NCBI GenBank assembly: GCA_964549615.1
Contig: CAZJVP010000032.1
Location: 1 to 37,187, forward strand
Source: an uncultured Thermococci archaeon
GTDB taxonomy: Archaea; CAYQAE01; CAYVLA01
Direction: 5' to 3'
Length of the DNA stretch: 37,187 nt
Part shown: positions 1,159-34,634 of the stretch, piece by piece
Numbering within the stretch: position 1 is the first letter of the stretch
How the letters are laid out: each line of letters starts with the position of its first letter
The notes under the pieces: model-generated
The model's database searches: none
Told to the model about the DNA's origin: nothing
The model's input: only the letters and a program-made list of their open reading frames with translations
Translations under genes and position numbers: made by a program

Positions 1159-1801
1159 GGCCGTGGGAAGAGCAGCTCTAACAACAACCGAAAACCCGAC
1201 CCCTCTTCAACAAGCGGATCGCTTCCTTTCACCTACCGTCCAAAGATCTTATCGCTGCTAGACGCTGCTATTGAAAAATGGAATCACCATGCACGTGACT
1301 TTCCATATCTGCGTTGGCCACAGGCCCACCGGCACAAGCCCGGCTCACATTGTGCTAAGAGCGTGTCGACCAGCCTGGTCAACATCGCACTCTCCTCGGT
1401 GTCGCTGATGGCTGCTCCCATGACTCCAACGGATCTCGGGGATGCCAGACCGTGTTGTGTGCCACTCGCACACGGTTCTTCTGCATGTCCTGTGGTGCTG
1501 GCAGATCCTGGCAATAGTCCATCGTTGCTGTATGCGCCTTGTGCCTTTTCACGATCTCGTGTCTGAGGTCTGGATGTATCCTGGTGCTGTCTTCTTGTGG
1601 ACCTCTCCATAACTCCGATCAACCTCAATCTCACTCCCTGCACATGATTATGCGATGCCCTTCCAAGGCATGACGAAACCAGTCCTGGAGGTGAGATTGT
1701 TCCTGTCTGCCGTCGCAATACGCATTCCCGCTAGGCCATCCGAAGGGAGGGGACCCCCGTAGGAAGCCGAAGAACTGAGCGTCCGGTTGCGCTGCTGAAG
1801 A

Positions 1802-2353
1802 TCAGCGTCCAGCCCCGGAAGGGGTGAGGAGCCGCTGGAATTCCCGTGCGAAGGCTTCGAATGCTTCGTGGCCGTAAAGACAGAACAGGACCCTCTCCAG
1901 ACCCGTCCTGCCCCGGAGGTACTCGAAAGCTGCGCCGAGCATCACCTTGGCGCATCGGTCCAGCGGATACCCGAAGATGCCCGTGGATATCGCCGGGAAT
2001 GCGATGCTCCTTATCCGGCGCTCGTCGGCCAGTCTTAGGGAGTTCAGGGTAGCCTGCCTCAGCTTCTCGTCCTCCTGTCCCTCCCCCATCCTCGGCCCCA
2101 CTGCATGGATCACGTATCGGGCTTTCAGGTTCCCGCCGGTCGTGATAACGGCTCCGCCGACATGGGTTCCTCCTATCCTGTTGCACTCCTCCTGGATGGC
2201 GGGACCTCCCTTCCTGCGGATGGCACCCGCAACGCCTCCGCCCATCTGGAGCCTGCAGTTGGCGGCGTTCACGATCGCTTCCGTGTCGAGGTCCGTTATG
2301 TCGCCCTCCACCAGCTCAACCAAGGTCCGACCAATGACCGCCTTCATGGTCAT
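1802..2353 (-). CDS. Macro domain protein (O-acetyl-ADP-ribose deacetylase / ADP-ribosylhydrolase, MacroD/YmdB type)
   Basis: GDIT, IVNAAN, GGGVAGAI, HAVGP and AFPAISTGIFGYP motifs; alternative ATG at 2347. Confidence 0.93.
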   Translation of the reverse strand: MTMKAVIGRTLVELVEGDITDLDTEAIVNAANCRLQMGGGVAGAIRRKGGPAIQEECNRIGGTHVGGAVITTGGNLKARYVIHAVGPRMGEGQEDEKLRQATLNSLRLADERRIRSIAFPAISTGIFGYPLDRCAKVMLGAAFEYLRGRTGLERVLFCLYGHEAFEAFAREFQRLLTPSGAGR

Positions 2354-2455
2354 ACAATGGGATGTCCGGCCTGTAAGCTCTTGCGGTCAACCTTCCAATG
2401 TCTGGTGTGCGATGTATCTAGCGGGACGCAGGCCGACCCGCACCAGGAAATGTGT

Positions 2456-3238
2456 CTAGTCCCTTGACGCGGGCAGGAAGTATCCGCGCGAGAATTCGAG
2501 TTTCGCGTCAGAATGGATCCTGACGACCATCATCAGGCCGTAGTGTGCCGGCACACCCAGGGAGTTCACCATCAACCTGACCGAGAAGCGGTCGTCCTCC
2601 CTGTTTGCTTGGTACTCCTTCCGGCCCAATATCGGCGCCTGCATTATGGGTGGCTTGTTCTGGCTCTGTGCCTCGGATGCCTCCATGGTGAGGTAGGTCT
2701 CGGGATCCTCGTTCTTGGAGAGGGTGAGGGAGGCGAGGCTCTTGTTTCTGTTGAAGAAGAAGTCGGACACCCCCCGGAATGCTAGCTTCCCCCGGGCGCC
2801 CTGGACGATCGCGTAGACGGTCGTGGCCGAAATGGTGGCCTCCTCGGGGGCGAGACTTAAGAAGGCATCGGAGAAGTCATAGAGATCGCAATCCAGTCCC
2901 TGGGCATCGACCCGTTCGTGGACGAAGGGCGCCCCGATCTCGTCGCAGAGCTTGATGCACGCCTCCAAGGCGCGCTCGACGGTGCTCGTCGGATCTCCCT
3001 GCTTGTCGGTCGCGTTTGCCAGGCAGTCGAGATCCACGGTCAGGATCCGGACGTTCTTGCGCAGGACGAAGCTATAGGAGATTTCCCTGGTCGTCGCCTC
3101 TCCGGACGGCATCGCCTCCGGAACGTTCTCCTCGAGAATTTCGAGCGAGGTCTTCGTTTTGCCCTGCATGAAGTACGTGACCATCGTGGAGGCCACGATC
3201 GATGTCATGAGTATGCCGGCGATTGTTCTCTTTTCCAT
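2456..3238 (-). CDS. Hypothetical N-terminally membrane-anchored protein (260 aa)
   Basis: ATG at 3238 (MEKRTIAGILMTSIVASTMVTYF, basic then hydrophobic) lies 5 nt after the upstream gene's stop; the ORF-track start overlaps the upstream gene. Confidence 0.7.
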   Translation of the reverse strand: MEKRTIAGILMTSIVASTMVTYFMQGKTKTSLEILEENVPEAMPSGEATTREISYSFVLRKNVRILTVDLDCLANATDKQGDPTSTVERALEACIKLCDEIGAPFVHERVDAQGLDCDLYDFSDAFLSLAPEEATISATTVYAIVQGARGKLAFRGVSDFFFNRNKSLASLTLSKNEDPETYLTMEASEAQSQNKPPIMQAPILGRKEYQANREDDRFSVRLMVNSLGVPAHYGLMMVVRIHSDAKLEFSRGYFLPASRD

Positions 3239-3243
3239 AGCTT

Positions 3244-4446
3244 CTACCTTCCAAACCTCGTGGTCTCGATCTCCCTGTAGAGCCTCCTTCTCACCATGAG
3301 CGTCCACAGCACGAAACCGCTTGCGGCGAAGGTCCCGCTCAACGTCGTCCATTCAACCGTGTAGATCCACATCATGGCCTGGTCCTTGAGATGGATCGCC
3401 TTCCTCGTGGCGCGGGACAGGGAATCGAGGGAGCCGTCCAGAGCTTCCAAGCTCTTCGCAAGGTCTTGATCCAGGTAGGCCCGGGTAGCGTCCCCGTACC
3501 TAGACTCGGCTTCATCGATCATCTTGGCGATGGGGTTCATGTTCGCTCCGAACTTCTCGCCGAAGTCCATGACCGTGAAGAGGTAGGACTTGGCCCATCT
3601 GTACTCGAGGAACTTTCCCCTCGCCTTGTGTACGGTCTCCAAGTCCTTGGGAAGTTCGTTGTCGCTCAGGTAGAGCATCAGGTTGACGGCGAAGTCGCCG
3701 TAGTACTCCCACCTCATGAAGACCACGCCCCCCGCTGGCGTCCAGTCGCCGGCCATGGCGAAGGTTATCCCCTTCCCCGACCTCCACGTTGCCCAGAAAG
3801 GGGCCGGAGGCTTGGCCACGCGCACCATCTGTGCCAGCTCGCTTGCGCCGATCTTGAGCTCCACCTCGTTGCCGTCGTAATACCTCATCCACTCCAGGTT
3901 GGGCCTGATAGGAATGCTCGAGACCAGCGGGTGATCCGGATCGACGATCACGACCCTTCCCTCCGTCCATCGCTCGTACAGGGAGTTCACGGGAAGGACC
4001 TCCTCCACGGGCGTCGTTCCCCACGACCTGTGTCCCCCGCGGCCTCCGAAGGCCTCATTCCCGCCGATCATGACGAGGCCCGATCCTCCCTGCTTCACCG
4101 CGTCGCTGTACCACTGGAGCTGGTTGGGCGTGAACACATCCGCATTCGCGTCGCTCAGGATCAAGACCTGGTAGGACGAAAGGCTGGCGTAGGTTCTGGG
4201 CATGTACTGCCTGACGGAGCGCCTTGCGATATCGATCGAGTACACGACGGTGGAGGCCTTCACGGGGTAGGGGAGTATGAGCGGCTCTGACTCCAGCGTC
4301 GGGTACGGACTGGATCCCGTGGGTTCACCCACGTACAAGACCCTAATCCTCCCCGTCTCAGGGTCCCTGCTACCCACCGCACATCCCGATGCGATGACGA
4401 CGGCGGCGAAGGCAGAGCAGAGGGCGGCTGTGAATGTTCTTGACAG
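3244..4446 (-). CDS. Secreted/membrane protein with glutamine-amidotransferase-like (DUF1355-type) domain and C-terminal TM anchor
   Basis: GLVMIGGNEAFGG..SWGTTPVEEVLPV motif, C-terminal TM then RRRLYREI; the frame extends upstream of GTG 4377 into a signal-like segment starting at CTG 4446 (start tentative). Confidence 0.7.
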   Translation of the reverse strand: MSRTFTAALCSAFAAVVIASGCAVGSRDPETGRIRVLYVGEPTGSSPYPTLESEPLILPYPVKASTVVYSIDIARRSVRQYMPRTYASLSSYQVLILSDANADVFTPNQLQWYSDAVKQGGSGLVMIGGNEAFGGRGGHRSWGTTPVEEVLPVNSLYERWTEGRVVIVDPDHPLVSSIPIRPNLEWMRYYDGNEVELKIGASELAQMVRVAKPPAPFWATWRSGKGITFAMAGDWTPAGGVVFMRWEYYGDFAVNLMLYLSDNELPKDLETVHKARGKFLEYRWAKSYLFTVMDFGEKFGANMNPIAKMIDEAESRYGDATRAYLDQDLAKSLEALDGSLDSLSRATRKAIHLKDQAMMWIYTVEWTTLSGTFAASGFVLWTLMVRRRLYREIETTRFGR

Positions 4447-27669: not shown

Positions 27670-28137
27670 CTAGAATACCTCGAAGTTCAGGTTCCTAGCG
27701 GCGCGCTCGGGGGACATCAGCAGGAGACTGTCATCTCGGATCGCACCGTCGTACCTGGTCCTGAAGTCCTTGAGGAAATCCTCAAGCTCCGTGAACCCGG
27801 GATGGGCCGAGACCACGATGTGCGTGAACCTCGAGCCTTCGACGGGCGCCGCGAAGATGATGCCTTTCGTCTTCCTCAGGAATTCATCGAGCTCCCCCAA
27901 ATTGCCCTTCGAATGGTCCCACCTGAAGAGGAAGATGCTAACGATCTTGAAGCCGATCTTCTCGAGCGCCGGAAGCGCGATGTAATTGGTGATCACCCCG
28001 CTGTTCTCGAGCCGGTCTATTATCTTGCCGACGCCGGGGCCCGTTAGCCCGGTCTCGTTTCCGATGTCCTCAAGGGTCCTTCGAGCGTTCTTGCAGAGGG
28101 CCCTCAGGACCTTGATCTCGTTCTTCTTGATTGGCAT
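27670..28137 (-). CDS. Lrp/AsnC family transcriptional regulator
   Basis: L..NARRTLEDIG..TGLT...V...IDRLENSGVI..Y HTH followed by a RAM-like domain. Confidence 0.85.
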   Translation of the reverse strand: MPIKKNEIKVLRALCKNARRTLEDIGNETGLTGPGVGKIIDRLENSGVITNYIALPALEKIGFKIVSIFLFRWDHSKGNLGELDEFLRKTKGIIFAAPVEGSRFTHIVVSAHPGFTELEDFLKDFRTRYDGAIRDDSLLLMSPERAARNLNFEVF

Positions 28138-28258: not shown

Positions 28259-29032
28259 CTACCAGAACCTTGGGAAAAGGCTTCCTATCCTGTAGTAATG
28301 TCGGAACAGTAGGCCAACGGCCTCGGCGGCCGCCCTCCCCTGGAACTCGATTGCCGAGAGGAAGGTGTTGTCCGAGCCGACCAGCTCGATCCCGGACCAG
28401 TCTCCGTCAATAACTGCGAACGAGAAGGGGATGTCGGCCACTCTTGTGTTCTTCCACAGCTCCTGAGCTCGGCTGAGAACATCGTTCCTCACCAGTTCAA
28501 GAAGGTCCAAGGCCAGCTCGCCAAGGTGGGTCATATTGGACTTGTACAGCACTTGGATTTGGACGTTCCTGTCCAACGCGTCAAACACCGCCTTCGCTAT
28601 GGTCGGATCAACGTATCTTGTTGCAAGCTTGATCCGCCTAGCCGCCCGGTCAATCTGGTCCAGCAGGGTGCTGACCATCTCGGGGTACGTCGATATGAGC
28701 CGGGATTCGAGCGGTAGACTGGACCTGTTTTGTGCTAGTGCCCTGCGCAGGCGGTCTTGCATGTCCAGGATGAGTTTGCCCCTTTCCGTCGTCCTGTAGG
28801 ATCTCAGCCCCTCCCTCTGAATGAGTCCGAGCCTAATCAGCTCGGAAAGGCGCGAATAGTATAGCTTCTGGCTTAAGCCCGTGCGCCTCAACGCATCCTT
28901 GCCGCTCGTTAGCTCCTCGTTAGCTTGGGCTAGGATCTCCATGGCGCCTTGCTTGCCCAGGACGCTGAAGAAGCGGCCGAGGCCCGGATCCGCCGAGCGT
29001 TCCACGTCATCCGTTAGACCTGCTTCCGCCAT
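28259..29032 (-). CDS. Winged-helix transcriptional regulator with TrmB/PLD-like effector domain
   Basis: LSQKLYYSRLSELIRLGLI...YRTTERG wHTH; IDRAARRIKLAT and FAVIDG PLD-like C-terminal domain; T7 run downstream at 28236-28242. Confidence 0.78.
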   Translation of the reverse strand: MAEAGLTDDVERSADPGLGRFFSVLGKQGAMEILAQANEELTSGKDALRRTGLSQKLYYSRLSELIRLGLIQREGLRSYRTTERGKLILDMQDRLRRALAQNRSSLPLESRLISTYPEMVSTLLDQIDRAARRIKLATRYVDPTIAKAVFDALDRNVQIQVLYKSNMTHLGELALDLLELVRNDVLSRAQELWKNTRVADIPFSFAVIDGDWSGIELVGSDNTFLSAIEFQGRAAAEAVGLLFRHYYRIGSLFPRFW

Positions 29033-29717: not shown

Positions 29718-29921
29718 CTATCTCGCTGCCAACTTGATGTCTTCCGCCTTCACGGTCTTCCTTCCAGCATGCCTGGCAAGCTTCACGGCCTTGGCGGCGA
29801 TCTCAGTGCCGTACTCCTCAAGTACCTCGGCCAAGGCCTTCGCCGCTGAGGCACTAACTCTCTCGGCATTCGCGTTCTGCTTGATTATCCTCTCGACAGG
29901 TGCCAGCGGAAGTTTCGCCAT
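29718..29921 (-). CDS. Archaeal histone (HMf family)
   Basis: [35 protein letters not shown]; TTTATA box near 29960 and GGTGA RBS. Confidence 0.96.
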
Positions 29922-30112: not shown

Positions 30113-31636
30113 CTAAGCCTCGCCGCCCGCGTGGCCGGCTTCCATCGGTAGAAGGCTGTCGCGGATTGCATCCAGCGAGGACAGTATCCTGCGTCCTCTC
30201 GGGGTTAGCGCGAAGTACTTCCTCCTGCGGCCGCGCGCCCTCACCCTCTTGCCCTTCATTTCGACGAGGCCCATCGACTCAAGCTCGCCCAGATGTTGGT
30301 ACACTGCCTGCAGGCTGATGGTCTCGCTGAACCTTACATGCAGCTCGTGCCAGATGGAGTATCCATATGTTGGACGGGCTCCGAGGGCCTCAAGGATGTG
30401 CATCTTGGTCGGGCCGAGCGCACCGAGAGATTTCTGGTCGATGTTCACCAGGTCCCATCCGGTGGAGAGCCTCGGTTCCAGGGTCTTGGCAATGCTCTCA
30501 GGGACCTTTAGCCCGCTGCCGGTGACGACACAGACTATGGTGTCCGAGGCGTCTGCTGTGCCGTCATCGATCAGCTCCCTCGCTGCGCATATGGTTGCCG
30601 CGGAGGCCGGCTCCGCAAAGATCCCCTCCTTGGATCCGAGAAGGTTCACAGCCTGGGTCATGTCATCGTCTTCGACGCAGTAAGCGAGCCCCCTTGATTC
30701 CCTTAGCGCGGCAAGGGCTGCCTGTCCGTTTATCGGATCCCCGATTGCGATGCTTGGGGCTATCGTCTCGCTCGGACCGACCGCTCGGATGGGCCTCTTC
30801 TTCTTGAAAGCAAGGGCGATGGGCGCGCACACCGCCGCCTGGGTTGCGACCATCCGAGGCATGCTGGAGATCACGCCGCACTCCCGCAGTTCCTTGAACC
30901 CCTTCCAGATCGCGTAGAGGTTAGTCCCCGTTCCGACGGGCACGACGACGAAGTCTGGGGCATCCCACCCAAGCTGGTCCGCTACCTCGAATCCCGTGGT
31001 CTTCTCCCCTTCCACGGAGTGCGGATTGGTCTCGATGGTTAGGTCGTGGCAGTCAGGAGTTCTGCATGCGGACCGGCATCTTGCTACCGCGTTCCTGAAG
31101 CTTCCGCGAGTGCGGTATACCTTAGCTCCATACACCAGGGTCTGAAGTAGTTTGCCGGCTTCGGCGGACTCTGGCGCGAAGATCAGACATTCCAGTCCCG
31201 CCTTCGAAGCGTATGCCGCAATCGATGCCCCTGTGTCTCCGTCCGTGGCGCACGCGACTCGTTTTGCGCCTAGGCTGACTGCAACGCTCACAGCAACGGT
31301 GCTGCCACGGTCGGCAAAGGACGACGTGGGATTCCGCGACTCGTCCTTGACGAACAGCTCTTTGAATCCCAGCAGCCGTTCGCACCGGTGAAGCGGCGTC
31401 CCCCCCTCGTCCAAGGTGACCTCCGGCTTCTCGAGAGGAAGAAGTTGGTGATACTTCCAGACCTTCGGGACGCCCTCTCGGAATTCCGATGCCAAGAGGC
31501 TCGAATGGTCGTATGTCGCCTCAAGCATGCCCTTCTCGCAGCGCGGACAGGTCAACGGAACAGCGCCCAGCCGGAAGAACCCGGAGCATCGCGGACATCG
31601 GTATCCGAGGAAAAGCGAGCCGGTCAGCTTCCTCAC
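30113..31636 (-). CDS. Threonine-synthase-like (fold-type II PLP) protein lacking the catalytic Lys, fused to C-terminal PadR-like wHTH
   Basis: CPRC..CPRC, TLDEGGTPL, NPTSSFADRG (K replaced by A), EGEKT, VPVGTGT, EPASA, VTGSGLK; C-terminal YGYSIW...VYQHLGELESMGLV...RKYFALTPRG. Confidence 0.85.
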   Translation of the reverse strand: MRKLTGSLFLGYRCPRCSGFFRLGAVPLTCPRCEKGMLEATYDHSSLLASEFREGVPKVWKYHQLLPLEKPEVTLDEGGTPLHRCERLLGFKELFVKDESRNPTSSFADRGSTVAVSVAVSLGAKRVACATDGDTGASIAAYASKAGLECLIFAPESAEAGKLLQTLVYGAKVYRTRGSFRNAVARCRSACRTPDCHDLTIETNPHSVEGEKTTGFEVADQLGWDAPDFVVVPVGTGTNLYAIWKGFKELRECGVISSMPRMVATQAAVCAPIALAFKKKRPIRAVGPSETIAPSIAIGDPINGQAALAALRESRGLAYCVEDDDMTQAVNLLGSKEGIFAEPASAATICAARELIDDGTADASDTIVCVVTGSGLKVPESIAKTLEPRLSTGWDLVNIDQKSLGALGPTKMHILEALGARPTYGYSIWHELHVRFSETISLQAVYQHLGELESMGLVEMKGKRVRARGRRRKYFALTPRGRRILSSLDAIRDSLLPMEAGHAGGEA

Positions 31637-32265
31637 CCGCTTTGGATCGCCCTACGCAGCAGGAACTCGTATACCTGTGAGCTATCGGAGAGCTCCGGGT
31701 GGAAGCAGGTCCCAAGGATGTTATTTTGCAGGGCGGCAACAGGCTTGCCATCGACCCATGCGATCGGTTTGCAGCCACCCCAAGTCTTCTCGATAACCGG
31801 CGCCCGTATGAAAATGCCGGTCTCCCTCACCGTGCCGCTCGGCAGCTTGAGCTCCAGCTCGGTTTCGAAGCTTTCGCGCTGTCTGCCGTACGCGTTGCGC
31901 AGAACGGATGCATCCATCACCGAAGGGAACCCCGGGTTGTTGCTCTGATCCCTGCCGTTGACGATCCTCGAAAGCAGGATGAGCCCGGCACACGTGCCGA
32001 TGATGGGTCGACCCGACCGGGCGAGCTGGATGATCGGCTTCTTCAGACCATTGGCCGCGATGAGCTTGGAGATCGTCGTGCTTTCGCCCCCCGGTATGGC
32101 CAGGCCCGCCGCATTGCTGATCGAACGGCCGTCCGTTGCCGATCTCACGCTGCCGGGCAGGGACAGCCTTTCCATGGCGCGGTGGATCGCCTCGACGTGC
32201 TCGGACACGTTCCCCTGGAATCCGAGGACGATGAACTCCGGACTCCTACCGTGCGCGCGGGACAA
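31633..32265 (-). CDS. pdxT: PLP synthase glutaminase subunit
   Basis: QGNVSEH, PGGEST, GTCAG, RNAYGRQ.ESF, FIRAP, FHPEL. Confidence 0.95.
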   Translation of the reverse strand: MSRAHGRSPEFIVLGFQGNVSEHVEAIHRAMERLSLPGSVRSATDGRSISNAAGLAIPGGESTTISKLIAANGLKKPIIQLARSGRPIIGTCAGLILLSRIVNGRDQSNNPGFPSVMDASVLRNAYGRQRESFETELELKLPSGTVRETGIFIRAPVIEKTWGGCKPIAWVDGKPVAALQNNILGTCFHPELSDSSQVYEFLLRRAIQSG

Positions 32266-32300
32266 GGCAGACCCACTTCGTATGGTTGGCCCGGGGTGGC

Positions 32301-33203
32301 TCAGATGCCCCTTTCCTGTAGCCTCTGATCGGCCGGGATGGCGGCGATCTCCAGCCCCTTCATCGGTTTGCCAAGCGATTTCGATGCCTCAAGGACCGCG
32401 GATGGATCGTTGTAGTTGTGGGTTGCCTCCACGATTGCCCTTGCCATCCTCTCGGGGTTCTCTGACTTGAATATCCCGGACCCAACGAAGACTCCATCCA
32501 CGCCCAACTGCATGCACAGCGCTGCATCGGCCGGGGTCGCTATGCCGCCGGCAGCGAAGTTCACGACCGGAAGTCTTCCCAGCTTGGCTACCTCCCTAGC
32601 CAGCTCAACGCTGACATGGTACTCCCGGGCCTTGGCAAGGAGTTCTATCTCATCGCAGAGATCCACTATGCCGCGGAGTTCGGCGATCTGCCTGTTGACC
32701 GTTCTGATGTGCTTGACCGCCTCCACGACGTTGCCGGTTCCCGCCTCCCCCTTGGTTCGGATCATCGCCGCTCCCTCCTCTATCCTCCGCAGCGCCTCGC
32801 CGAGGTCCCGGGCACCGCAAACGAAGGGTATCTTGAACTTCTTCTTGTCGATGTGGTTCGCGACGTCGGCAGGCGTCAGGACCTCGCTCTCGTCGATCAT
32901 GTCGACTCCCAACGCCTCCAGCACCTTCGCTTCAGCGAAGTGGCCGATTCGGACCTTGGCCATGACCGGGATGGTGACCGCGTCCATGATCTCGACGATC
33001 TTCTCCGGATCCGCCATCCTAGCCACACCTCCCTGGGCCCTTATGTCGGCCGGAACCGCGTGCAGCGCCATGACCGCAACGGCGCCCGCGGCCTCTGCTA
33101 TCCGGGCCTGTTCGGCGGTAACGACGTCCATGATCACGCCGCCCTTCTGCATCTTGGCAAATCCGCGCTTCAGCCTTTCCGTCCCGACGATTCTCTCTGC
33201 CAT
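32301..33203 (-). CDS. pdxS: PLP synthase lyase subunit
   Basis: [58 protein letters not shown]. Confidence 0.98.
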
Positions 33204-33241
33204 TGTCCCGCCTCAGATCAAGACGATGTTTCGTGCGGAAT

Positions 33242-33274
33242 ATGCAAGTTCGGGCTTGTATTTAACTCTTATTG
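33242..33274 (-). promoter_or_regulatory. BRE/TATA of pdxS operon with overlapping imperfect inverted repeat (candidate operator)
   Basis: Minus strand reads CAATAAGAG-TTAAATA; ATGCAAG-N6-CTTGTAT at 33242-33261. Confidence 0.5.
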
Positions 33275-33284
33275 TCATGCACGC

Positions 33285-34532
33285 TCATGCGTGGGCAAGC
33301 TTGGTTGAGCCGATCTCCCTGTAGAGCCGTCTCTTGACCATGAGCGTCCAGACCCCAAAGCCTGCCACCAGGAAGGTCCCCGAGACGCAAAGCCATTCGA
33401 TGGCGTAGATCCAGAGGAGCGCCTTGTCCTTCAGCCTCAGCGCCTCGTCCCTCAGCGAGGAGATGTCCGCGAGTAGGCCATTCATGGCCTCCCACGATCC
33501 GGCATAGTCCTGCGCGATGTACTGCGACCGGGCATCCCGCCAGCGCTCGTCCATTCCGAAGACCTTGCTTTCCAGCGGGGCCATGTTTGCCCCGAACTTG
33601 TCGACGAACTCCATCAAAGAGAAGATGAAGGCCTTCATCTCGGCATACCTCGAGAAGGCACTGCGAAGCTCGTGGACCATGACGACATCATCCGGCAGCC
33701 TCCGGCCGGTGCTGTACATCATCATCGCGATCATGACATCCGTGCCATAGGGGTTGACGCCCTCGTTCCAGAAGCTGGCGCCCAGTATGTCTTGGACCGA
33801 CCACGTATAGCCCTTGCCGTATCGCCACCCTAGGATATGAGGGAAGAATCCGGGCTTCGGATACGAGAATTCCGGGAAGACGTCCGTTTTCGACCACGTG
33901 TAGGTCTCGGAGCCATCCTTGGGTATCATTAGGTTGTTGCCCCACCATCCGACGTCGAAGACCAGTACGTGTTTATAGGCTTTCACGACGTCCGGGAGGG
34001 TCGGATCCTCGTTGAGGACGACTTGCATGTTCCCATTCCGATGATAGTTGGTTGATATCACAGCATCTGCATCATTTGGGAAGGCATCGGAGAGCACGGA
34101 CTGCGCCCAGCTGGAGGACAGATGCAGGTGCATGCTCATCACGCTCCTGTCTTGGAGTCCCCCCAGCCCCGCTTCCTCTATCGAGCGCCTCATCCACTCA
34201 AACTGCGTCGGGGTGAAGTAGAAGCAGTCTATCTGCTCCAACAGCATGAATTCATACTTTGTCGTCAGATCTTGGTAGGTGCGGGGGAAATAAAGCCTCA
34301 TGTATCGGCGGACCATGTCCGAGGTCATGTCGATGTTGGCGCTTCCGATCCGGGTCGGTATGACGACTGCATCCGTCATTGGTTCTCGCTTCAGCAGAGC
34401 CCCCATTAGGGGCATGCCGGAGGCATGTCCGGTACAGAGAACTTCTAGCGGGTCGTCTCGCTCACCTGCGCCGACAGGCAAAGCAAGTGAACCTGCTATG
34501 AGCAGCAGCACCGCCAGAACGTCCGATTTCAC
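33285..34532 (-). CDS. Secreted/membrane protein, paralog of 3244-4446
   Basis: Signal peptide from GTG 34532, YFPRTY, FVDKFGANM.P, C-terminal TM then KRRLYREI; TTTAT box near 34570. Confidence 0.78.
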   Translation of the reverse strand: MKSDVLAVLLLIAGSLALPVGAGERDDPLEVLCTGHASGMPLMGALLKREPMTDAVVIPTRIGSANIDMTSDMVRRYMRLYFPRTYQDLTTKYEFMLLEQIDCFYFTPTQFEWMRRSIEEAGLGGLQDRSVMSMHLHLSSSWAQSVLSDAFPNDADAVISTNYHRNGNMQVVLNEDPTLPDVVKAYKHVLVFDVGWWGNNLMIPKDGSETYTWSKTDVFPEFSYPKPGFFPHILGWRYGKGYTWSVQDILGASFWNEGVNPYGTDVMIAMMMYSTGRRLPDDVVMVHELRSAFSRYAEMKAFIFSLMEFVDKFGANMAPLESKVFGMDERWRDARSQYIAQDYAGSWEAMNGLLADISSLRDEALRLKDKALLWIYAIEWLCVSGTFLVAGFGVWTLMVKRRLYREIGSTKLAHA

Positions 34533-34634
34533 CGGGACCAGCTCGCAGGGTCCTTGGCGATCTCGGATCATAAAGAGTTTTCGGATGGAGCATCGATGAT
34601 CGATGGAGCAAGTGGCGTCCGCCATTCTTGCGGC

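Follow-up and report, generated by a model that had tools for sequence, protein, structure and literature searches.

In Bacteria, the genes pdxST for the synthase of pyridoxal 5'-phosphate (PLP) are controlled by PdxR, a GntR regulator that belongs to the MocR subfamily, and in some bacteria this control includes the salvage and uptake genes pdxK-pdxU, as laid out in those parts of three reports that treat the regulator (PMC5320631, PMC11619246, PMC10450172). Within Archaea, we regard RbkR, the riboflavin kinase and regulator, as the closest analogy to the protein considered here; in the sections of PMC5397151 that deal with it, an enzyme-type domain is joined to a winged helix-turn-helix (wHTH) domain, and the protein controls genes for both synthesis and transport of its vitamin. 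In the literature searched, with subscription journals and supplements outside its scope, we found no description of a regulator combining threonine synthase (ThrC) with a wHTH domain, nor of any archaeal regulator of pdxST or other archaeal transcription factor acting on B6 metabolism. Here we describe a stretch of DNA of 37,187 nucleotides (the window) from an uncultured Thermococci archaeon (contig CAZJVP010000032.1 of assembly GCA_964549615.1), in which the genes pdxS, pdxT and a third gene, encoding a fusion of a ThrC-like and a PadR-type domain, form a single minus-strand operon. Most likely, this fusion protein is a candidate transcription factor and not a threonine synthase; its ligand, its binding to DNA and the sign of the regulation are what we infer. 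The reading that we favor, and consider probable, is that of a dimeric, B6-vitamer-sensing autorepressor that would resemble PdxR in action, though composed of a fold-type II and a PadR domain.

The fusion protein and PdxR have in common the union of an enzyme-derived PLP-fold domain with a wHTH, and they would also share, judging from gene linkage and operator position in the case of the fusion protein and from partial accounts of PdxR, the target pair formed by pdxST and a PdxU-like S component. They differ in that PdxR possesses an N-terminal wHTH of the GntR type and a fold-type I, aminotransferase-like domain with its Lys, whereas the fusion protein carries a C-terminal wHTH of the PadR type, its sole match to a DNA-binding domain, together with a ThrC-like domain of fold-type II that has no such Lys. 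Moreover, the fusion protein is archaeal, and the placement of its candidate operator next to the TATA box points to repression. PdxR and the fusion protein are convergent and not homologous, and the latter stands outside the MocR family. With genuine threonine synthases (EC 4.2.3.1, TIGR00260; Protein Data Bank (PDB) entries 2zsj, 2d1f, and 1uim) it shares the fold, clear homology, a zinc-ribbon-like segment, the glycine-rich loop, and the EPASA and TGxGLK motifs; it differs by the lack of the Schiff-base Lys, of the Arg of NPxRxEGQKT, and of the Thr and Asn of ASTGNT, and by the added wHTH. In RbkR, as far as the portions of its description that concern the enzyme go, the enzyme domain is active, so that the protein is bifunctional, the fold is unrelated, and the vitamin is B2 and not B6. 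Typical PadR regulators (PF03551; 6abq, 6abt) possess the same type of wHTH with a C-terminal helix, and the presumed target of the fusion protein is likewise a palindrome, a candidate operator. Such typical regulators are about 110-180 amino acids long, and their ligand-binding site is situated between the wHTH and a small domain at the C-terminus, whereas the fusion protein carries a 400-amino-acid, enzyme-derived domain as its presumed sensor.

Altered Active-Site Residues in a ThrC-Like Protein

A model that had been given only the DNA and its open reading frames (ORFs), hereafter the sequence-only reading, had drawn attention to the third gene of the operon, and what it saw at this level was borne out. 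The fusion gene starts with GTG, which overlaps the stop codon of pdxT by four nucleotides (GTGA), in agreement with the ORF coordinates. The full-length architecture is present, with a zinc ribbon, a PALP domain, and a C-terminal PadR-type wHTH. The wHTH scores 46.7 bits against the PF03551 profile, for which the cut-off is 27, and the solved PadR structures 6abq and 6abt match it at E-values of about 5e-5. The CxxC pairs of the N-terminal segment are found in canonical archaeal ThrC homologs as well, so that this segment is not special to the fusion. For the exact sequence of the fusion protein, the Atlas contains a structure model with a predicted template modeling score of 0.74 and a mean predicted local distance difference test (pLDDT) value of 0.81.

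To compare individual residues, we relied on alignments to the solved threonine synthases 2zsj, 2d1f, and 1uim (E-values from 4e-70 to 1e-62). The sequence NPTSSFADRG of the fusion protein aligns with NPTGSFKDRG of ThrC and ATDGDT with ASTGNT, while the motifs VPVGTGTN, EPASA, and TGSGLK are kept, all as the sequence-only reading had proposed. The plus strand reads GGC at the position of Ala108, and the resulting GCC codon is three substitutions away from AAA or AAG; since 18 of the 19 members of the clade to which this protein belongs have Ala at the Lys site and the remaining one has Thr, the replacement is not an assembly error. In ThrC, O-phosphohomoserine is bound at its phosphate by the loop Asn together with the Arg of NPxRxEGQKT. 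This Arg is present in all 99 canonical ThrC rows of our alignment, rows that were defined in part by Arg at position 207, and in none of the 93 fusion rows; the protein from the window has Ser207 instead. The first Asn of the GNAGN loop is changed to Thr (GTGTN). Asp132 is found in 18 of the 19 clade rows and Asp134 in all 19 of them, at positions where the canonical rows have Thr (99/99) and Asn (99/99), respectively, and G235 and G237 are invariant in fusion and canonical groups alike.

The changed pocket is well preserved among relatives. In an alignment with the 15 closest ones (54-79% identity), the mean column identity is 68%, and an invariant pocket scaffold comprises N102, P103, T104, S106, D109, R110, G133, E209, K212, and T213, together with G235, G237, Q266, E342, P343, T372, G375, L376, and K377. 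From this column identity, the conserved residue at the Lys site and the invariant scaffold, the alignment indicates that the fusion gene is functional and not decaying, and that its changed pocket is under purifying selection.

A canonical thrC gene with the Lys is located on another contig of the same genome (G000:C30:16143-17090; the corresponding locus, L001, reads NPTGSFKDR), in line with the suggestion of the sequence-only reading that one be looked for. A search of the genome with the TIGR00260 profile gave 337 bits for this gene versus 244 for the fusion gene. The fusion protein passes the TIGR00260 cut-off (242.8 versus 167.1 bits), so that annotation pipelines will name it threonine synthase. 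What it lacks of such an enzyme is the Schiff-base Lys (Ala instead), the Arg of NPxRxEGQKT (Ser instead) and the Asn residues of GNAGN, the ASTGNT loop (ATDGDT instead), and the standing of the sole thrC in the genome; because of these replacements and the canonical gene elsewhere, it is unlikely to serve as the threonine synthase of the cell.

The strongly conserved pocket scaffold and the score above the TIGR00260 cut-off would also suit a bifunctional enzyme-regulator in the manner of RbkR, BirA, or NadR, whose PALP domain performs a Lys-independent catalysis on a B6-related substrate while the wHTH exerts regulation; the parts of PMC5397151 on RbkR provide an archaeal case of a vitamin kinase joined to a wHTH. 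We regard this as quite improbable. From clade to clade, the Lys site is filled by different residues (A, T, R, I, L, M, V, K), as would suit the loss of a catalytic constraint, and to our knowledge no fold-type II PLP enzyme works without its Schiff-base Lys. Nor has the clade acquired a new invariant Lys that might substitute for it: of the invariant ones (K97, K145, K162, K212, K377, and K411), K212 and K377 are conserved in canonical ThrC, K97 and K162 align with Lys residues of solved ThrC chains, K145 aligns with Arg in these chains, and K411 lies outside the ThrC-like domain.

The ThrC-PadR Family in Archaea

The homolog search recovered many archaeal proteins with PALP and PadR domains, the few named ones being called threonine synthase or PLP-dependent enzyme. 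They derive from Odinarchaeum, Lokiarchaeota, Bathyarchaeia, and Thaumarchaeota/Nitrososphaerales, and every relative is archaeal. In the Atlas, three clusters (with 50, 104, and 53 members) display the same architecture in Thorarchaeota and Nitrososphaerota. Furthermore, the NCBIfam model NF004170 (PRK05638, an equivalog named "threonine synthase" with 442 positions) spans both the ThrC-like and the wHTH parts. The fusion protein from the window scores 338 bits against it, under the 421-bit cut-off, with residues 13-488 aligned to positions 3-441; a fusion protein from a lineage that we refer to as f8 (L058:1495-2829 in genome G010) reaches 740 bits. Since this latter protein has Arg in place of the catalytic Lys, NF004170 is likely to spread an incorrect enzyme name through the genomes of Archaea. 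The sequence-only reading had presented the fusion as a candidate new type of regulator while conceding that such fusions might already be catalogued; the concession was apt, and the notion of a rare or uncatalogued protein has to be dropped in favor of a large archaeal family that NF004170 models over its full length and that is known under an enzyme name. The clade of the protein from the window is separate from the members of NF004170: it is linked to pdxST, has Ala at the Lys site, and possesses about 30 extra linker residues.

For the family alignment we pooled 261 sequences, of which the 252 unique ones of at least 300 amino acids were aligned. Among the 93 fusion rows that have a residue at the Lys site, this residue is K in 23, R in 20, A in 18, I in 18, L in 8, M in 4, and T and V in one each, so that the Schiff-base Lys is missing from 70. 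By comparison, 153 of the 156 rows without a C-terminal extension have K, and the three exceptions resemble truncated fusions. A FastTree phylogeny of the ThrC-like domain (249 rows) contains three fusion clades: an Ala/Thr clade of 19 rows (support 100), a K/R clade of 46 rows (support 100), and an I/L/M/V clade of 31 rows (support 91). These clades and canonical ThrC meet in a polytomy, which leaves a single origin of the fusion and the number of Lys losses undecided by this domain. The wHTH can be aligned throughout the fusion clades, YQHL being invariant in its recognition helix, and this homologous wHTH suggests that the fusion arose once.

New in this work are the loss of the Lys and of the Arg across the archaeal ThrC-PadR family, its linkage to pdxST or S-component genes, and the shared candidate operator. 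As to earlier mentions, a cysH-thrC fusion is the only one to appear in the portions of PMC11237513 at hand, and the supplementary tables of that report and of PMC9997740 could list the ThrC-PadR architecture.

Linkage to Genes for B6 Synthesis and Candidate B6 Uptake

In all seven Ala/Thr-clade loci, namely the window, three loci from related genomes (L063-L065), and three metagenome contigs (L066-L068), the fusion gene is directly preceded by pdxS and pdxT on its own strand. These two genes occur in none of the 33 distant fusion loci, within the DNA fetched, and the pdxST linkage is special to the Ala/Thr clade. The sequence-only reading had proposed that fusions be scored for Lys loss and pdxST linkage: the Lys is lost in 70 of 93 rows, and the linkage is seen in seven of seven loci of the clade and in none of the 33 distant ones, a restriction to one clade that corrects this reading.

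Instead, 24 of the 33 distant loci contain a gene, mostly adjacent, for a PF07155 membrane protein of the type of S components of energy-coupling factor (ECF) transporters; three of the nine loci without a match are cut by a contig end. The hidden Markov model (HMM) used here was built from six of these proteins, so that six of the 24 positive loci were its seeds; it found no match in the other 112 loci or in the window. The R and K clades have the S-component gene directly downstream of the fusion gene (for example, L009:7487-8239), and the I/M/V clade has it upstream in divergent orientation. In a search of PDB sequences, its sole match at E-values up to 10 was chain S of 4hzu (E 1.2e-9). 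This chain is HmpT/PdxU2, with pyridoxamine as bound substrate according to the relevant part of PMC4860826, and PdxU and PdxU2 are both assigned to PF07155 where PMC9997740 treats them. The archaeal neighbor is thus a candidate PdxU2/HmpT-like B6 uptake protein. PdxS was absent from all seven genomes checked that have the fusion together with an S component, two of them 97-98% complete and five being Bathyarchaeia metagenome-assembled genomes (MAGs) of unknown completeness; PdxJ was tested in these five MAGs and was absent from each. Given the pdxST linkage on the one hand and the S-component linkage in PdxS-less genomes on the other, the family adjoins B6 synthesis genes where these are present and a candidate B6 uptake gene where they are absent. 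The genome of the window has a single weak PF07155 match (C48:63021-63473, 27 bits), and no match above 14 bits to the operator matrix described below is found there.

The fold of the fusion protein derives from an enzyme that binds O-phosphohomoserine, the fusion gene lies near a canonical thrC in two metagenome loci (L075 and L078), and MocR regulators such as GabR, in the accounts available of them, sense an amino acid through bound PLP. These points would favor a pdxST transcription factor whose ligand is a metabolite of the amino-acid type (O-phosphohomoserine, threonine, phosphoserine) or an adduct of PLP with an amino acid, and which thereby ties B6 supply to amino-acid metabolism and not to free B6; we judge this to be unlikely. 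The linkage across the family is to pdxST and a PdxU2-like transporter and not to amino-acid genes; the canonical Arg, which binds the substrate phosphate, is retained in none of the 93 fusion rows; in the Ala/Thr clade the Asn loop is exchanged for two acidic residues; and without the Lys there is no internal aldimine that would prime the formation of an adduct.

Several further features of these neighborhoods may be recorded. In L075 the canonical thrC (1177-2412, minus strand), which has the Lys, ASTGNT and the Arg, lies on the opposite strand upstream of the fusion gene, divergent from it at a distance of 76 bp; in L078 a thrC with the same features (2326-3561, minus strand), again upstream and on the strand opposite to the fusion gene, is about 1.3 kb away with one gene in between. 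Both fusion genes still have a downstream S-component gene. In the subclade with Leu at the Lys site (L077, L079, and L091), an S-component gene is missing from the vicinity. In L077, the only one of these loci that was scanned, a ParA/NUBPL-type P-loop ATPase precedes the fusion gene and genes for an SMC-like ATPase and a phosphoesterase follow on the other strand, and L079 and L091 contain ORFs that match these neighbors in size and strand. In Bathyarchaeia loci of the R clade, an ORF of about 340 amino acids follows the S-component gene on the same strand (for example, L009:8253-9290), being the second gene downstream of the fusion in L004-L007, L009, L010, L012, and L071, and the third ORF downstream in L141. 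The ORF of L009, the one locus scanned, encodes an AIRS/AIRS_C protein with sub-threshold matches to models of HypE, ThiL, and SelD, and might act in salvage as part of this regulon. A search of five Bathyarchaeia genomes for PF08543 (the ThiD/PdxK family) gave full-score matches in only three, which is no help in deciding whether the AIRS-like gene replaces a kinase.

A Candidate Operator at the Promoters

A palindrome of the CAAGyy-NN-rrCTTG type with AT-rich flanks lies directly 3' of the TATA box in all six pdxS promoters of the Ala clade, and in five of these six orthologous promoters its arms match at 8-10 of 13 positions. In the window, the core CAAGCC-CG-AACTTG at 33245-33258 follows immediately 3' of the TATA box, and the 26-bp palindrome as a whole overlaps the box. 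When the 3.2-Mb genome was scanned with a position weight matrix (PWM), the pdxS site, itself part of the training set, scored 33.1 bits and the next best site 14.2; with no second site, no wider regulon can be claimed for this genome.

Related sites occur beyond the Ala clade. All 12 R/K-clade loci have, in the short spacer between the fusion and the S-component genes, a TATA-like box followed by TAGTATAGTT-NN-AACTATACTA, which shares with the pdxS operator its position, the 2-nt spacer, and the AGTT-NN-AACT core. In a lineage that we refer to as g17, the S-component promoter has two tandem sites of the CAAGTA-NN-AACTTG type. In the f8 lineage, represented by three single-contig genomes of 1.8-2.0 Mb that are 99% complete, pdxS and the regulator gene lie far apart; one of the pdxS promoters nevertheless has a TATA box followed by CAAGTT-TT-AACTTG, the sole perfect match in a genome of 2.0 Mb, a second has two sites with one and two mismatches, and the third has the right half site only. 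Twelve of the 15 best sites in five genomes fall inside ORFs and three are intergenic, and two of these three are the f8 pdxS promoters.

For comparison, we took the 130 nt upstream of pdxS from 30 archaeal genomes and counted the mismatches of the best site in each; left out among those with PdxS were G005, where the match is at a contig end, and G022, G038, G042, G045, and G053, for which there was no locus. The seven genomes with the regulator, which represent two lineages and are not independent cases, gave 0, 1, 1, 1, 1, 2, and 3 mismatches, whereas the 23 without it gave 3 (one genome), 4 (nine), 5 (eleven), or 6 (two) mismatches; two mismatches or fewer are thus found in six of seven versus none of 23.

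The recognition helix of the wHTH co-varies, in the sequences compared, with the type of operator: the (L/Y)QAVYQHL version is paired with CAAGTT-type sites (the Ala clade, g17, and f8), and the TRAAIYQHL or xGA(V/I)YQHL version with TATAGTT-type sites.

Genome-wide enrichment of CAAGTTNNAACTTG in the genome of the window (G000) was considered and rejected, as the motif is at chance frequency: five sites with at most one mismatch were counted versus 2.8 expected, and 63 with exactly two versus 52. Likewise, CAAGTTNNAACTTG or its TATAGTT variant is at chance or control frequency in ten other genomes. Because the genome-wide counts equal chance, the case for the operator rests on its position and on its conservation across lineages.

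This missing enrichment and the fact that the palindrome includes the quasi-symmetric TATA box itself could be accounted for if the palindrome were an ordinary promoter element and the fusion protein had no role in transcription, acting as a carrier or buffer of PLP or as a partner of PdxST with the wHTH making protein contacts; that free PLP is reactive and that cells need carriers for it is stated in the pertinent part of PMC9997740. We hold this to be very improbable. The wHTH exceeds the Pfam cut-off for PadR and matches solved PadR structures, YQHL is invariant and the recognition helix varies together with the palindrome type, the palindrome is missing at pdxS in all 23 genomes that have no regulator gene, and it is present at S-component promoters where there is no pdxS.

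Two other sites may be mentioned. A perfect CAAGTTTAAACTTG palindrome at G010:C1:886943-886956 (L170) is intergenic, and no ORF of at least 80 amino acids begins within 150 nt of it. This palindrome may be an additional regulator site or a chance match. The same two-mismatch variant of the Bathyarchaeia palindrome (TATAGTTCCAACAACA) occurs at G061:C1:466714-466729 and at G062:C4:19554-19569, and may be an orthologous second site or conserved coding sequence.

Proposed Mode of Action

In the mechanism that we propose, the ThrC-derived domain keeps the scaffold of the cofactor pocket and would bind a B6 vitamer reversibly, most likely PLP (or pyridoxamine 5'-phosphate (PMP) or pyridoxine 5'-phosphate), so that the sensor domain would read the product of PdxST. 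With the Lys replaced there would be no covalent aldimine, and occupancy should follow the free B6 pool. Asp132 and Asp134 may shift the response of the pocket from one vitamer to another; that the 4'-amino group of PMP plays a part in this is speculation. The protein would dimerize through its ThrC-like domain, and the loaded dimer would place its two PadR wHTH domains on the palindrome at 33239-33264 that abuts the TATA box of pdxS, a dimer with two wHTH domains fitting a palindromic site. Bound in this way, it would block the promoter and repress pdxS-pdxT together with its own gene in a feedback autorepression. The placement of the site, next to the TATA box and over the expected start region, is in keeping with repression by occlusion, a mode established for many archaeal repressors. 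In the other clades, the same logic may operate at the gene for the PdxU2/HmpT-like uptake protein or at an unlinked pdxS; with genes for synthesis and uptake as targets, repression when B6 is plentiful would be a sensible logic. The prediction of the sequence-only reading, a non-catalytic, fold-type II PLP-like sensor with a wHTH that regulates B6 synthesis, gains support from the separate thrC, the conservation of the Lys-less pocket, the linkage, and the operator.

A model of the homodimer (residues 56-507 with PLP) scored 0.83, versus 0.00 for the best of three controls; the mark used for this score is reached by 20 of 30 proteins solved as one-chain pairs and by one of 23 solved as single chains. 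Between model runs the contact agreement was at least 52%, and the pLDDT of the partner was at least 81. The modeled interface lies in the ThrC-like domain (residues 75-390). Since ThrC dimers have already been solved, the high score may reflect these known structures.

A number of observations weigh against this autorepressor. The wHTH domains are outside the confident part of the modeled dimer interface, and Asp at the conserved Asn position (134) might weaken the binding of a cofactor and not retune it. The Lys is kept in 23 of the 93 family members, so that its loss is not required for the role of the family. With regard to the uptake gene, the substrate of the S component is assigned from a distant match, PF07155 also includes riboflavin transporters, and NCBIfam searches with the S components gave only weak, sub-threshold matches (TIGR04002, FolT-family, and RibU); five of the seven PdxS-less genomes are the MAGs of unknown completeness. 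With regard to the operator, the 14-bp core motif is low in information and its genome-wide frequencies are those of chance, one f8 promoter is limited to a half site, the regulator-bearing genomes of the comparison stem from two lineages, and the consensus was taken from the promoters of the Ala clade itself, which makes the f8 and g17 sites the only independent tests.

Extended to all its members, the autorepressor reading would make the ThrC-PadR family the missing archaeal B6 regulator, in which the Lys was repeatedly lost (to A, T, R, I, L, M, or V) for reversible reading of the free B6 pool. It would repress pdxST or a solitary PdxU2-like uptake protein; next to a transporter gene, it would mark B6-auxotrophic archaea, and NF004170 would be a systematic misannotation. 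This proposal covers the Ala-clade lineage of the hot-spring archaeon from the window, Bathyarchaeia, Asgard archaea of the Odin and Loki types, Nitrososphaerota, and the lineage covered by NF004170, and we lean toward it by a little.

If these proposals are true, pdxST and a candidate B6 transporter are joined in an archaeal B6 regulon whose operator is defined; B6 transporters are called an open problem in the part of PMC9997740 that addresses them. The family would then also be an instance of convergent evolution, in which a different PLP fold and a different wHTH were joined for the same job and the Lys was removed for the sake of reversible binding. It would correct the widespread label "threonine synthase", which is passed on to genome-scale metabolic models built for MAGs of Bathyarchaeia, Asgard, and Nitrososphaerota, and a natural PLP-responsive switch would be on offer for the design of biosensors.

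Features of the Locus and Neighboring Genes

The features of the operon, the fusion protein, and the promoter are compiled in Table 1.

Table 1. Positions in the window of the pdxS-pdxT-fusion operon, of domains and altered residues of the fusion protein, and of promoter elements.
Feature	Position	Strand	Basis
pdxS, PLP synthase subunit, 300 aa	32301..33203	-	ORF list; Pfam PF01680 SOR_SNZ, E 3.7e-102
pdxT, PLP synthase glutaminase subunit, 210 aa	31633..32265	-	ORF list; PF01174 SNO, E 2.3e-40
ThrC-like/PadR fusion gene, 507 aa (P0001)	30113..31636	-	ORF list, Pfam, NCBIfam, structure alignments
Zinc-ribbon-like CxxC...CxxC N-terminal segment, residues 13-34	31535..31600	-	Seen in translation
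PALP domain (fold-type II PLP-enzyme-like), residues 73-373	30518..31420	-	PF00291, E 1.3e-70; 2zsj, E 4.3e-70
Ala108 codon GCC at Schiff-base Lys position	31313..31315	-	Sequence and alignment
ATDGDT loop replacing ASTGNT, residues 130-135	31232..31249	-	Alignments
Ser207 replacing Arg of NPxRxEGQKT	31016..31018	-	Alignments
Glycine-rich loop GTGTN, residues 235-239, counterpart of ThrC phosphate loop GNAGN	30920..30934	-	Alignments
PadR-type wHTH, residues 414-485, recognition-helix motif SLQAVYQHL	30182..30397	-	PF03551, E 3.2e-12; PadR structures 6abq/6abt
pdxS promoter TATA box TTAAATA	33259..33265	-	Sequence; TTAAATA/TTATATA-like box at the same place in 6/6 orthologous promoters
Candidate operator, 26-bp imperfect palindrome (minus strand TAAATACAAGCCCGAACTTGCATATT)	33239..33264	.	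Promoter comparison

The genome to which the window belongs has a size of 3.2 Mb and is 99.5% complete. TATA-type promoters, an ORF resembling archaeal histones near the operon and the exclusively archaeal relatives of the fusion protein mark the organism as an archaeon. A public DNA run from a hot-spring metagenome contains the whole stretch with one differing letter and is possibly the source sample. In a metatranscriptome of a microbial mat, two contigs of 151 nt, each with two differing letters, fall on pdxT (32033-32183) and on the 3' part of pdxS (32345-32495), a hint that the organism or a very close relative is present there and that pdxS and pdxT are represented in the RNA library; such contigs cannot reveal level, strand, or ends. 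No contig of this run falls on the fusion gene or the promoter, which proves nothing.

Upstream of pdxS, an ORF of 446 amino acids (33285-34625, minus strand) has a hydrophobic C-terminal stretch (...WTLMVKRRL...). In L064 and L065, too, pdxS is preceded by this C-terminal coding sequence, which makes the neighborhood syntenic within the family. Directly downstream of the fusion gene, the ORF list contains an archaeal-histone-like ORF of 67 amino acids (29718-29921, minus strand), and past it, likewise from the ORF list only, two ORFs on the minus strand (28259-29032 and 27670-28137) resemble regulators of the helix-turn-helix type.

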